A stretch of 64,000 bases of DNA from Opitutales bacterium (lineage in GTDB: Bacteria; Verrucomicrobiota; Verrucomicrobiia; Opitutales; UBA953). Numbering within the stretch: position 1 is the stretch's first letter; every line of letters starts with the position of its first letter. The stretch is taken from positions 258,847-322,846 of the forward strand of contig JBBAUX010000001.1 in assembly GCA_040398005.1 (NCBI GenBank), read 5' to 3'. Positions 54,001-57,000 of this stretch are shown piece after piece. The position numbers are program-made.

Positions 54001-57000
54001 CCTGGGCGTGAGCTTTGGCTAAAGGAGAGGGGATATCACTCGACTCAAAAATATTATCGGCCCCACGCACGGCAATGTAAGCATCCATCTTCTTCATGCG
54101 GGCTAACTCAAACTCGTTACTTAATTTAAATTGTTCGGTGACGCCGTAGCGAACGAGCTCGCGATTGATCCGGGGCTTTTGAAAATTAACTTGGGGCACT
54201 GCACCGCGGGCACGGGCGGCACGGATGAGGGCGACCACAAATTCTTCCGGCACGTCAGCCACGTCGATTAAGACCTTCTGGCCTTTTTTAAGGTCGATCG
54301 AGAATCCGCAGAGGACCTTAGCTAAGTCGTTATATCGTGAATCCATTTCCCCTTTACCATGTCGGTTTTACGCAATTTTCCAAGTGCTAAACCCTTTCTT
54401 GCTACAATTATTGTTTCATATATCTAATAGGTATGTCGTCTTCCGGTCCCCATGAACGTGCGCAAGCTCTGACGAACGATGCGGCCTTTGATTTCGCCGT
54501 GGGCGACGAAGCAGCGGCACTCACTAAATTGAATGAGGCGGTCGCCCTCGCGCCCGATTTTTTTGAAGCCTGGCTGGCCAAAGCTGAAGTGCATTTTGCA
54601 CAACGTCAGTTCGATGACGCACTGCAAGCAGGCGAAACGGCTTTAAACTTAAAACCGAAAGATATTCATATTCATACATCGCTCTCCCGAATTTGGATGG
54701 AGCGTGGAGATAAAACCAGGGCCGAACACCACGGCGCCCAGGCCCGAATTCTGGGCTGGGGTGATCAGATCAAAGAGCCCGAGGGCGGGCAGTCCCGCGA
54801 TATCTCCTAAGCATTGTGACAGACCAGATTTGCCTTGTGACACCCTGTCACGAAGGTGCGTGACAGATTAAGGTCAGTTTAGGGAAGTAATCCCGCGTAA
54901 TCCCCAAAAAAACCATGTAAACTATTGCTAAACCCGTCAAAAATCGTTTTGGCATTCCTTCTGCAATACGCAGTTCGCCCAGTTCGGGCAACCTAACCTT
55001 ACCAAAACCTATGTCCAAAAACTCCAAACTCAAAGTAAAGCCTCTCGCTGATCGCGTTCTCGTTCAACGCATCGAGGAAGGCGAAGAAATCAAGGGTGGC
55101 ATCATCATCCCTGATTCTGCCAAAGAAAAACCACAAGAAGCTCGCGTCATTGCCCTCGGCACCGGTGCGCTCGACAAGGACGGCAAGAAGATTCCTTTCT
55201 CCGTTCAAGTGGGCGACAAAGTTCTCATCGGAAAATACGCCGGCTCGGAAGTGAAACTTAACGACGACACTTACTTGCTCCTCTCCGAAAACGAAATCCT
55301 CGCGATTATCGAATAATTATTTCTCTCACTCTTCATAAATAAAATCCTATGTCCAAAAAACAAATCCTGTTCGATGAAGCCGCCCGCCGTAAGGTGTTGA
55401 ACGGTGTCACCATTCTCGCCCGTGCGGTGAAAGTCACCCTCGGACCGAAAGGCCGTAATGTGATGATCGATAAAAAGTTCGGCGCTCCTAAAGTAACGAA
55501 AGACGGTGTTACCGTTGCTAAGGAAATCGAATTGAGCGATCCCTATGAAAACATGGGCGCCCAAATGGTTCGTGAAGTAGCCTCCAAAACTGCTGATAAA
55601 GCAGGGGATGGCACGACCACCGCGACCGTTCTCGCTGAAGCTATCTACAAAGAAGGTCTTCGCTTCGTCGCCGCGGGTGCCAATCCGATCTTCGTGAAAC
55701 GTGGTATCGATAAAGCCACCGAAGCGATTGTTAAAGAACTCGCTAACATTTCTAAGAAAATCAAAACCCGCGAAGAAATTAAGCAGGTTGCGACCGTTTC
55801 CGCTAACTGGGATTCATCCATCGGTGACATCATCGCCGAAGCCATGGATCGCGTAGGTAAAGACGGCACGATCACGGTTGAAGAAGCTAAGACTATCGAA
55901 ACGACGCTCGACGTTGTTGAAGGTATGCAATTCGACAAAGGTTACCTCTCACCTTATTTCGCCACCAACGCGGAAACCCTCGAAGCCGTTCTTGAAGACG
56001 TCTACGTTCTTCTCTTCGAAAAGAAGATCAGCTCGATGAAGGACCTCCTTCCTTTACTCCAAGAAGTCGCGAAATCCAGCAAGCCTCTCCTCATCATCTC
56101 TGAAGAAGTTGAAGGCGAAGCCCTCGCCACTCTCGTGGTTAATCGCCTCCGTGGTACGATCAACGTCTGTGCCGTCAAAGCCCCTGGCTTTGGTGACCGT
56201 CGTAAAGCGATGATGGAAGATATCGCTGTCTTAACGGGTGGACGTTTTATCACCGAAGACCTCGGTATCAAACTCGAGTCTGTTAAAGTCGCTGATCTCG
56301 GTCGCGCCAAACGTATTGTGGCCGACAAAGAAAACACCACCATCATCCAAGGTGCTGGTAAATCTGCCGACATCCAAGGCCGCGTGAAACTTATCCGTCG
56401 TCAAATCGAAGAAACTTCTTCCGATTACGATAAAGAAAAACTCCAAGAGCGTCTCGCAAAACTCGCTGGTGGCGTCGCCGTCATCCACGTAGGTGCTGCA
56501 ACCGAAGCTGAATTGAAGGAGAAAAAAGATCGCGTCGACGACGCTCTGCACGCCACGCGCGCTGCCGTTCAAGAAGGTATCGTTCCTGGTGGTGGCGTAG
56601 CTCTGCTCCGCACCGTTAAGGCAATCGACGCCGTCATCAACTCCCTCAGCGATGACGAAAAGATTGGTGCTCAAATTGTTCGTAAGGCAATTGAAGAACC
56701 TCTCCGTACTCTCTGCGCTAACGCCGGTGTTGAAGGTTCACACATCGTCCAAGAAGTTCTTCTTAAACACAAAGGTGCTAACGGTTACAACGTAGCTACC
56801 GGTGAATACCAAGATCTCGTGGCTGGTGGCGTGGTCGACCCAACTAAGGTCACCCGTACTGCAATCATCAACGCTGCTTCTGTAGCCGGACTCTTACTTA
56901 CCACGGAATGTCTCATCACTGATCTTCCTGAGGATTCGAAGTCTGCGCCCGGTGGCGACCAGCACGACCACTGAGCCTAAAAGCTAGTTCGTGTATCAAC

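Follow-up and report, generated by a model that had tools for sequence, protein, structure and literature searches.

Positions 54816 to 54965 of the window (the whole 64-kb stretch of DNA that was analyzed) are best read as an enhancer-dependent sigma-54 promoter of groES-groEL. This promoter would belong to a core chaperone regulon that is ancestral to Verrucomicrobiota and driven by a conserved NtrC-type response regulator, which we label EBP-B; we put the probability of this reading at about 0.75. In the mechanism that we propose, sigma-54 RNA polymerase would bind TGGCAT-N5-CTGCA as a closed complex, and EBP-B (a receiver, a GAFTGA AAA+ ATPase, and a Fis-type helix-turn-helix, or HTH) would occupy GTGACA-N3-TGTCAC together with the half-sites on either side of it, some 100 bp upstream. 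EBP-B would contact the polymerase by DNA looping, possibly helped by bending at 54918-54930, and promoter opening would be powered by ATP through EBP-B. Through sharing EBP-B, dnaK, g00601-grpE-dnaJ, and clpB would join groESL, making the core chaperone set one regulon. A PAS histidine kinase, presumably cytoplasmic, probably phosphorylates EBP-B, and the kinase/EBP-B pair probably senses protein-folding or heat stress. Given an ancestral regulon, the UBA953 family would only have separated dnaK from groESL, with promoter and enhancer kept at each.

The groES promoter and its upstream sites

The source organism is a small freshwater bacterium, and its assembly (G000) is 93.9% complete. The features of the groES region, in order along the window, are as follows.

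54816 to 54821, plus strand: distal GTGACA half-site, 6 nt beyond the upstream TPR gene's stop codon
54837 to 54851, no strand assigned: core enhancer palindrome GTGACACCCTGTCAC (GTGACA-CCC-TGTCAC), putative EBP-B site
54860 to 54865, plus strand: proximal GTGACA half-site, present only in the four closest genomes
54918 to 54930, minus strand: conserved, IHF-like box lying between the enhancer and the promoter; its minus-strand sequence is TAGCAATAGTTTA
54950 to 54965, plus strand: sigma-54 promoter TGGCATTCCTTCTGCA, with the -24 GG at 54951-54952 and the -12 GC at 54963-54964
55011 to 55316, plus strand: groES, open reading frame of 101 aa
55349 to 56974, plus strand: groEL, open reading frame with translation, 541 aa, 32 nt past groES in the same operon

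The promoter reads TGGCAT-TCCTT-CTGC-A and lies 46 nt ahead of the groES ATG at 55011, where the initial annotation had also placed it. It agrees with 9 of the 11 specified positions of TGGCAC-N5-TTGCW, with GG and GC ten bases apart; from promoter geometry, transcription is predicted to start near 54976, some 12 nt past the -12 GC. The strict sigma-54 pattern has one match in the window (0.30 expected), as does the exact palindrome GTGACACCCTGTCAC, and neither count is significant alone; it is conservation that carries the weight. Homologues of groES were found in 57 of 61 UBA953-family genomes, and the name groEL reflects our reading of the translated sequence. A scan of 54700-55100 for sigma-70-type sites returned none against 0.2 expected, using the Escherichia coli consensus, from which promoters of this phylum may differ. 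A single rpoN is present in the assembly (PF04552 match of 173.5 bits, 484-aa open frame, C5:29662-30138).

Parts of the stretch are contained in 16 runs recorded as RNA, and the four that we compared all consist of assembled contigs. Contigs from lake metatranscriptomes cover groES and groEL, and those from two of them cross the intergenic region (X1, 54453-55231; X3, 54665-55153), while two other contigs start at 54988 and 55021. Because this RNA is available only as assembled contigs, two bridging and two starting inside, it shows neither a transcription start nor the lack of one. No plus-strand terminator was found between the upstream TPR gene and groES, and the bridging contigs could represent read-through from that gene or DNA carry-over.

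The palindrome sits 98 nt upstream of the promoter. A dyad-symmetric site at this distance fits what is expected of an enhancer (UAS), which lies about 80 to 150 bp upstream and is common to co-regulated promoters. The groES palindrome is the sole exact match to GNGACA-N3-TGTCNC in the genome. With up to two mismatches and up to 200 nt above the promoter, it recurs at 31 of 33 family groES loci outside genus g2 and at none of the 14 loci within g2. The distal position retains a TGTGACA or TGTC(C/T)CA half-site in an alignment of 27 distinct family sequences. Between enhancer and promoter, the block TAATCGTTTGCTAA is kept in genera g1 and g5, and the box at 54918-54930 fits 8 of 9 specified positions of WATCAANNNNTTR, the consensus for IHF. 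Two HU/IHF-family genes are present in the assembly, and the box may act as a DNA-bending site.

Octamers of GTGACA type also make up palindromic repeats scattered over this genome, so counts of half-sites call for caution. These repeats are tandem 8-nt direct units that fold into long hairpins. We rejected the palindrome as a chance copy of them because its N3-spaced dyad differs from the tandem 8-nt units and is kept at orthologous promoters.

Chaperone promoters in the genome and across the phylum

Comparable elements precede the other chaperone genes. The dnaK gene has TGGCACATGCCCTGC at C5:110746, 30 nt ahead of its ATG, and g00601 of the g00601-grpE-dnaJ operon has TGGCACATCTAATGC at C3:137116 on the minus strand, 16 nt ahead of its ATG; both were located as first annotated, and the g00601 element is kept in genera g1 and g5. 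The inverted repeat described as the same at groES and dnaK is indeed present at both, but the dnaK copy, GTGACACTTTGTCAA, is one mismatch off the groES palindrome. For clpB, which had been listed as having no sigma-54 match, we found a degenerate element 24 to 30 nt ahead of the ATG whose position is conserved across the family; in this genome it reads TGGTCTAATTAGTGCA and is weak (7/11). Sites related to the GTGACA palindrome precede dnaK, g00601, and clpB alike, and a genome screen for promoter and palindrome together returned only groES, dnaK, g00601, and two weak others. Relaxed sigma-54 matches (at least 9/11) are intergenic in 20 of 247 cases, and noncoding DNA makes up about 9% of the genome; there is thus no intergenic enrichment, and single-genome counts carry little weight. 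The g00601 product had no Pfam or NCBIfam identity. A language-model atlas suggests short AsmA/DUF748-like proteins, which is a lead only.

Conservation of these elements extends well beyond this genome. Before groES, TGGCA-N7-TGC was found at 48 of 50 loci of the family, drawn from five genera, with TGGCA and TGC invariant and the spacer varying. One of the two exceptions (L037) has its contig end 68 nt upstream, inside the element, and the other (L049, genus g3) carries a degenerate CGGCAT-N5-TTGC. Before dnaK, the best element scored at least 9/11 at 25 of 28 loci within the family, 26 of 27 elsewhere in the order, and 35 of 39 beyond it (other orders and classes), where mononucleotide shuffles gave 0.5 to 0.7 loci per set. 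The palindrome, with up to two mismatches and 30 to 200 nt above the dnaK promoter, was present at 18 of 28 family loci, 11 of 27 order loci, and 22 of 39 class or phylum loci (0.1 to 0.2 in shuffles). Related genomes are not independent, so all these counts overstate the support.

At 24 of 27 loci from elsewhere in the order, groES lies downstream of dnaK in the same orientation, and the promoter therefore has to be sought before dnaK. This arrangement defeats the earlier test, which looked within 150 nt of groES and led to the statement that the promoter was not seen in other Verrucomicrobiota; more generally, a search upstream of groES alone is a method trap that misses the promoter wherever groES follows dnaK. 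A sigma-54 promoter together with GTGACA-type sites precedes dnaK across the order and the phylum. We therefore rejected a lineage-specific origin of sigma-54 chaperone control in UBA953, and with it the proposal that the family itself brought its chaperones under sigma-54 control. What is specific to UBA953 is that dnaK and groESL lie apart, each with its own copy of promoter and enhancer.

No PF01628 (HrcA) match was found in the assembly, and only 1 of 301 genomes of the phylum has one, so that the absence of HrcA is phylum-wide. The whole genome contains no match to the CIRCE consensus with up to three mismatches and two with four, both away from chaperone genes. For RpoH, the best TIGR02392 match scored 173.7 against a cut-off of 323.1, and no rpoH thus passes the model; the best scorer is a 356-aa sigma factor with a better fit to RpoS/RpoD-type models (309 vs 378.7). 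Of the initial annotation, then, conserved sigma-54 chaperone promoters with a common activator-type site, without CIRCE/HrcA or a passing RpoH, hold up, whereas the reading of this control as new in the lineage does not.

Candidate activator, kinase partner, and competing explanations

Genomes of the family contain two orthogroups of response-regulator enhancer-binding activators (EBPs), EBP-B and the NtrC-like EBP-A, which is encoded at C10:39264-40763. All 18 sampled congeners carry EBP-B; in the G000 assembly only EBP-A was found, and the 9-kb EBP-B region of the nearest relative (G038) has no DNA match there. At 93.9% completeness, this absence probably reflects an assembly gap, which fits the early remark that the activator might lie in unassembled DNA. 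On the strength of the congeners, we assume that the source organism carries EBP-B.

The EBP-B proteins of relatives match Response_reg, Sigma54_activat, AAA_lid_14, and HTH_8 in Pfam and have Walker A, GAFTGA (GAYTGA in G038), Walker B, an arginine finger, and the receiver Asp. Two regulators from reduced genomes are without the DNA-binding domain. The best NCBIfam scores were 462 for AtoC (cut-off 714) and 436 for NtrC (cut-off 558.6); EBP-B is thus a member of the family that falls outside every named equivalog (NtrC, AtoC, ZraR, and others). EBP-B-type proteins formed no single supported clade against all paralogues in our tree, and we called orthology from short branches together with a common N-terminal signature.

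Several lineages retain EBP-B as their sole EBP. Seven listed genus-g2 genomes with a single EBP, one of them 99% complete, have EBP-B only and retain the chaperone promoters. Each of the five genomes of 0.8 to 0.9 Mb that we examined encodes a single EBP, which is of EBP-B type; a sigma-54 promoter precedes dnaK in four (L208, L209, L214, and L236), and the dnaK locus of the fifth (G371) fell outside the sample. Genus g2 also differs in its upstream sites. At the groES, dnaK, and clpB promoters examined, the GTGACA palindrome is present at 0 of 14, 1 of 7, and 0 of 7 g2 loci, and CGGGAAC motifs occur at 7 of 14, 6 of 7, and 6 of 7, compared with 0 of 33, 0 of 20, and 0 of 19 elsewhere. The HTH of g2 EBP-B has changed from NRTKAA to NRSAAA and from RRTLHRKL to RRTFHRKL and has gained a KRGRR tail. 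This covariation of enhancer and HTH represents a single evolutionary event. By elimination and from that one event, EBP-B is likely to be the chaperone activator.

A candidate partner is suggested by gene order in three genomes from other orders and classes (G138, G130, and G083), in which a gene for a HisKA-HATPase kinase directly precedes that of EBP-B. The best G000 homologue of this kinase has 389 aa (C5:7772-8941) and only PAS, HisKA, and HATPase domains in Pfam. Full-length homologues are kept in four of five reduced genomes, and within UBA953 the kinase gene is not adjacent to that of EBP-B. This PAS histidine kinase, presumably cytoplasmic, is probably the partner of EBP-B.

We give little credence to constitutive chaperone expression from the sigma-54 system, with kinase and regulator always on and no stress switch. 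The kinase/regulator pair is the only EBP system left in strongly reduced genomes, the loss of the DNA-binding domain from two regulators suggests simple, unregulated activation, and groES and groEL were found in ordinary lake metatranscriptomes. Against this, the conserved receiver with its acceptor Asp and the PAS-bearing kinase argue for a signal, and equivalent promoters of Flavobacterium psychrophilum are described as condition-induced in the accessible part of that study (PMC9723704).

Still less credible is a scheme in which EBP-A, the sole activator in the assembly, drives both nitrogen and chaperone genes and couples chaperones to nitrogen status. The 94%-complete assembly encodes no true PF00158 protein besides EBP-A, whose gene has its own sigma-54 promoter, and a GTGACAG half-site lies about 70 nt before the amtB promoter (C4:115697). 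However, EBP-A is not among the 20 EBPs from 12 of 19 genus-g2 genomes, where groES, dnaK, and clpB keep strong sigma-54 promoters, and its own upstream palindrome TGCTTAAATTTAAGCA, conserved in genus g1, is unlike the chaperone site; on these two grounds we rejected it as the chaperone activator. In addition, each of the 18 other genomes sampled from the genus encodes an EBP-B-type protein as its second EBP, and the EBP-B region of the nearest relative is wholly missing from the assembly. Least credible is an operator role of the palindrome, in which a heat-shock repressor functionally analogous to HrcA/CIRCE or HspR/HAIR would bind it to control an unrecognized sigma-70-type promoter, and the -24/-12 match would not be the working promoter. 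The steady basal expression that essential chaperones normally need, the RNA contigs traversing the intergenic region, and possible deviation of the phylum's promoters from the scanned consensus would suit it, but GG-N10-GC with TGGCA and TGC is kept over a free spacer at 48 of 50 groES and most of 94 dnaK loci, a palindrome about 100 bp above such an element has the geometry of an enhancer and not of an operator, the sigma-70-type scan was empty, and one EBP is kept even in genomes of 0.8 to 0.9 Mb.

Wider reading and relation to described systems

The usual explanations of bacterial heat-shock control are sigma-32, HrcA/CIRCE, HspR, and CtsR. Verrucomicrobiota, whose members include common bacteria of lakes and oceans and important ones of the gut, appear to use none of these four, and their essential chaperones seem to need an activator powered by ATP that works at sigma-54 promoters. 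In its broadest form, which we regard as evenly balanced between right and wrong, an ancient PAS kinase/NtrC-type activator/sigma-54 system would be the master and probably essential regulator of folding in all Verrucomicrobiota, perhaps in the wider PVC superphylum, replacing sigma-32 and HrcA. It would be the last sigma-54 activator in genomes of 0.8 to 0.9 Mb, with even its DNA-binding domain dispensable, would have changed its helix and sites together in one genus (at groES, dnaK, and clpB), and may equal chlamydial CtcB/CtcC.

The closest described counterpart is in F. psychrophilum, a member of the Bacteroidota, where mapped starts with -24/-12 (SM4) motifs precede groES-groEL, dnaK, grpE-dnaJ, and clpB according to the available portion of the report (PMC9723704). 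The same gene set (groESL, dnaK, grpE-dnaJ, and clpB) stands behind sigma-54 motifs in G000, where it was recognized from sequence alone. The activator is likewise unassigned in F. psychrophilum, with three PF00158 proteins mentioned; the regulon there also covers lon, htpG, skp, and gliding genes, and the accessible text describes no shared upstream palindrome or kinase/regulator pair (PMC9723704). An in silico survey predicted sigma-54 promoters on GroEL, GroES, IbpA, GrpE, DnaJ, DnaK, and Clp/Lon-type proteases as a phylogenetic trend, with the enrichment reported in Planctomycetota and Bacteroidota; in the sections available, Verrucomicrobiota (Opitutia and Verrucomicrobiia) come up only in connection with nitrogen, motility, ABC transporters, and rpoN and not with chaperones (PMC12316311, PLoS One 2025). 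The literature that we searched held no description of sigma-54 chaperone control in Verrucomicrobiota or Akkermansia: an Akkermansia paper brings in RpoN only as a candidate for a motif linked to zinc (PMC12552655), and NtrC-type genes are only listed for Methylacidiphilum (PMC5623727). Regulons of this kind have been published for other phyla, which makes the principle a known one. Added here are concrete, testable candidates for activator and kinase, a binding-site consensus, and a natural case in which binding site and DNA-binding domain changed together at groES, dnaK, and clpB.

The chlamydial phylum is related to Verrucomicrobiota within the PVC superphylum, and the regulator CtcC of Chlamydia trachomatis presumably has no DNA-binding domain, like the EBP-B of two reduced genomes. 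CtcB/CtcC of this species is, like the proposed pair, a two-component system with an NtrC-type activator; in the portion of the study available, hrcA and grpE went up when the ATPase domain of the regulator was overexpressed, and a sigma-54 promoter lies 18 nt upstream of hrcA (PMC7482065). Unlike the system proposed here, Chlamydia retains HrcA/CIRCE, and its sigma-54 targets are mostly membrane and type III secretion genes in that account (PMC7482065).

A groESL operon under an enhancer-binding activator, as proposed here, also exists in Bradyrhizobium japonicum. Its groESL3 depends on NifA and sigma-54. The operon is co-regulated with nitrogen-fixation genes (PMC6604987, as far as the accessible text goes); it is one of several copies and symbiosis-linked, whereas the housekeeping copies are under other controls. 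In Myxococcus xanthus, the histidine kinase HsfB and the NtrC-type regulator HsfA are annotated for heat shock and activate the heat-shock gene lonD; this is a single protease gene, where the regulon proposed here covers all core chaperones, and the genome encodes dozens of NtrC homologues (PMC3892784, in the part available).

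A putative sigma-54 promoter upstream of groESL

The groESL operon of G000, an Opitutales bacterium of the family UBA953, is preceded by a region that, judging from its sequence and its counterparts in relatives, is very probably a sigma-54 promoter dependent on an enhancer. Counted along the window (C1:258847-322846), the features of this region are as follows:

54810: end of the TPR-repeat gene upstream of groES
54816-54821: first GTGACA half-site after the TPR-repeat gene
54837-54851: perfect dyad, GTGACA-CCC-TGTCAC
54860-54865: third GTGACA half-site
54918-54930: conserved box between enhancer and promoter
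54950-54965: sigma-54-type element, TGGCATTCCTTCTGCA
55011: ATG of groES
55349-56974: groEL

Re-reading the sequence bore out the promoter and repeat distances at groES in the initial annotation. The sigma-54 motif and the dyad each occur once in the window, which on its own is not significant, and 20 of 247 relaxed sigma-54 matches genome-wide are intergenic, which is no enrichment in non-coding DNA. Because motif counts in a single genome carry little weight, the case for the promoter rests on comparison with relatives. Neither a sigma-70-type site nor a plus-strand terminator was found between 54700 and 55100. Contigs with groES and groEL are present in lake metatranscriptomes at 92-99% identity, and two of them span the intergenic region; a transcription start cannot be read from such contigs. 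Shortly after groEL lies a 164-aa open reading frame (57065-57559) with no Pfam match.

We compared 60 further genomes from the five genera of the family (g1 to g5). The element TGGCA-N7-TGC, with a freely varying spacer, lies 59 to 109 nt upstream of groES in 48 of 50 fetched family loci; the two misses are a contig that ends inside the element and a degenerate CGGCAT-N5-TTGC in g3. The sigma-54-type element and upstream repeat that had been proposed at groES are real and well conserved. When scored on the 11 specified positions of TGGCAC-N5-TTGCW, the best element before dnaK reaches at least 9 in 25/28 family loci. The gene g00601, first in the g00601-grpE-dnaJ operon, is found in g1, g3, g5, and part of g4. 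The conserved form of its promoter is TGGCAYGSCTAYTGCT in g1 and TGGCCTGCCT..TGCT in g5. For clpB, previously described as having no sigma-54 match, the statement is amended: an element sits at a fixed position 24-30 nt before the ATG across the family, weak in g1 (TGGAACGG..TGCA; TGGTCTAATTAGTGCA in G000) and strong in g2 (TGGCACGG..TGC).

Distribution across the order and phylum

G000 (1.44 Mb in 14 contigs, 93.9% complete) has one copy of rpoN. Its chaperone operons do lack CIRCE/HrcA control as first proposed: HrcA was not found in this genome, nor was any CIRCE with up to three mismatches to the consensus. Of the five sigma-70-family genes present, none reaches the cut-off of the RpoH model; for the 356-aa protein, the best fit is to RpoS/RpoD-type models. 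Across the phylum, HrcA occurs in 1 of 301 genomes of at least 90% completeness.

The arrangement was initially read as a lineage-specific rewiring in UBA953, which is wrong, as promoter and dyad precede dnaK across the order and phylum. Promoters scoring at least 9/11 are found before dnaK in 26/27 loci of the order and 35/39 loci of other orders and classes (shuffles, 0.5-0.7 per set), and dyads with up to two mismatches in 11/27 and 22/39 (shuffles, 0.1-0.2), where the shuffles keep base composition only and related genomes among the loci are not independent. Of 27 groES loci from the order's other families, 24 have groES downstream of dnaK in the same orientation, and two of the remaining three have their own sigma-54 element at groES. 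This pattern is unambiguous and marks the predicted chaperone regulon as ancestral to the phylum. The only peculiarity of UBA953 is that dnaK and groESL lie apart, each with a promoter and an enhancer.

Mapped starts with a -24/-12 motif are described before groESL, lon, dnaK, grpE-dnaJ, htpG, and clpB of Flavobacterium psychrophilum (PMC9723704). A 2025 survey predicts sigma-54 enrichment at the same chaperone set for Planctomycetota and Bacteroidota; in the passages found, Verrucomicrobiota are not among the phyla mentioned for chaperones (PMC12316311). Related cases are Chlamydia trachomatis, where overexpression of the ATPase domain of CtcC increased hrcA and grpE (PMC7482065), and the Myxococcus kinase/NtrC pair HsfB/HsfA for heat shock (PMC3892784). 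Our literature search found no paper on a sigma-54 chaperone regulon in Verrucomicrobiota. The kind of regulon is already known; this analysis adds candidates for the activator and its kinase, a consensus for the site, and an enhancer switch in g2.

Enhancer variants and a candidate activator and kinase

In g1, g3, g4, and g5, a GnGACA-N3-TGTCnC dyad precedes the promoters of groES and dnaK by about 85 to 115 nt, usually with an additional TGTGACA half-site upstream. Outside g2, it is present at no more than two mismatches to GTGACANNNTGTCAC in 31/33 groES and 17/20 dnaK loci. The clpB enhancer is a GCGACA/TGTCGC variant, often doubled, and that of the grpE operon consists of two direct half-sites, GnGACA-N4-5-GTGACAGAAGG, adjoining the terminator of the upstream gene. 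A conserved box ...TAATCGTTTGCTAA... between enhancer and promoter could have a bending role; at 54918-54930 it matches, on the minus strand, 8/9 positions of the IHF consensus, and G000 has two HU/IHF-family genes.

Two NtrC-type sigma-54 activators, the enhancer-binding proteins (EBPs) EBP-A and EBP-B, are encoded in 18/18 other sampled genomes of the genus and one in G000, where EBP-A is the only true sigma-54 activator of the assembly. EBP-B (about 460 aa, N-terminus KPTVLIVDDEKxTR(E/D)GL) combines a receiver, an AAA+, and an HTH_8 domain and carries Walker A/B motifs, GAFTGA, and an arginine finger. In the closest relative, whose GroES is identical to that of G000, EBP-B lies together with hemA in a 9-kb stretch to which nothing in G000 matches at the DNA level. 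EBP-B is probably missing from G000 through a gap in the assembly, in line with the earlier suggestion that the activator may lie in unassembled DNA.

Four observations make EBP-B, not EBP-A, the candidate activator of the chaperone promoters. First, EBP-A is absent among 20 EBPs fetched from 12 of 19 g2 genomes, the activator of the seven listed single-activator g2 genomes (one 99% complete) is EBP-B, and g2 retains strong sigma-54 promoters at groES, dnaK, and clpB. Second, in other families each of five 0.8-0.9 Mb genomes has exactly one activator, of EBP-B type, with sigma-54 promoters before dnaK in the four whose dnaK locus was looked at. Third, the conserved dyad about 75 nt upstream at EBP-A's own promoter, TGCTTAAATTTAAGCA, differs from the chaperone dyad, and a sequence like it, TGC-N10-GCA, is present before amtB. 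Fourth, enhancer and protein co-vary in g2. The GTGACA dyad is found there in 0/14 groES, 1/7 dnaK, and 0/7 clpB loci, and CGGGAAC/GTTCCCG in 7/14, 6/7, and 6/7 (elsewhere 0/33, 0/20, and 0/19); exactly where the dyad changed, EBP-B has an altered HTH, a longer linker, and an added basic KRGRR tail. Since this co-variation is one evolutionary event, the tie of EBP-B to the chaperone sites that it offers is suggestive only.

The sole sigma-54 activators of G363 and G360 (loci L273 and L274; 0.8-0.9 Mb) consist of receiver and AAA+ domains without HTH_8 (412 and 393 aa). Such activators would need to work in the absence of an enhancer, as chlamydial CtcC reportedly does.

In three genomes of other orders or classes (G138, G130, and G083), a HisKA-HATPase histidine kinase gene lies directly 5' of the EBP-B-type gene. 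The best G000 homologue of these kinases (37-39% identity, 389 aa, C5:7772-8941), in which Pfam finds only PAS, HisKA, and HATPase, is encoded among unrelated housekeeping genes and has full-length homologues in 4/5 reduced genomes. We infer that this PAS kinase pairs with EBP-B and that the signal is heat or unfolded protein. In G083 (L288), the kinase and EBP-B genes are directly followed by a protein-quality-control gene, for an HtrA/DegP-like protease (Trypsin_2 and PDZ).

Other sigma-54 promoters and repeats

Strict promoter matches in G000 lie directly before groES, dnaK, g00601, two amtB genes, and the gene for EBP-A (499 aa, receiver-AAA+-HTH, closest to NtrC). The promoter of the EBP-A gene, TGGCACG..CTGCC, together with its dyad (C10:39160-39250; loci L070-L094) suggests autoregulation. 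A GAF-GAF histidine kinase (C8:58782-60602) may be the partner of EBP-A.

In G000, g00601 is followed by grpE and dnaJ and stands first in the operon, the slot held by hrcA in many bacteria. Its 261-aa product (P0001; C3:136300-137085, minus strand) has a hydrophobic N-terminal stretch and no Pfam or NCBIfam match. A language-model atlas groups it, at a score of 0.97, with short proteins resembling AsmA/DUF748 from Verrucomicrobiota, Lentisphaerota, and Chlamydiota, as a lead only.

Palindromic repeats of tandem 8-nt units (GGGACAAG / GTGACACG ... CCTTGTCAC / CTTGCCCAC) are dispersed in G000, form long hairpins in intergenic DNA, and have the GTGACA half-site in common with the chaperone enhancer:

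C1: 106360-106440, 229400-229600, 230160-230250, and 231690-231800
C7: 99540-99575
C8: 25170-25215
C10: 54510-54570

At groES of two g2 genomes (G035 and G027; L065 and L066), the leader downstream of the sigma-54 promoter has an inverted repeat, GCGGGAACGCG...CGTTCCCGC, possibly an operator or a hairpin in the RNA. The GroES proteins of g2 (L052-L064) have a lysine- and cysteine-rich N-terminal extension, MSKDKKEKCCCK..., not seen in other genera, which may be a metal-binding tail.
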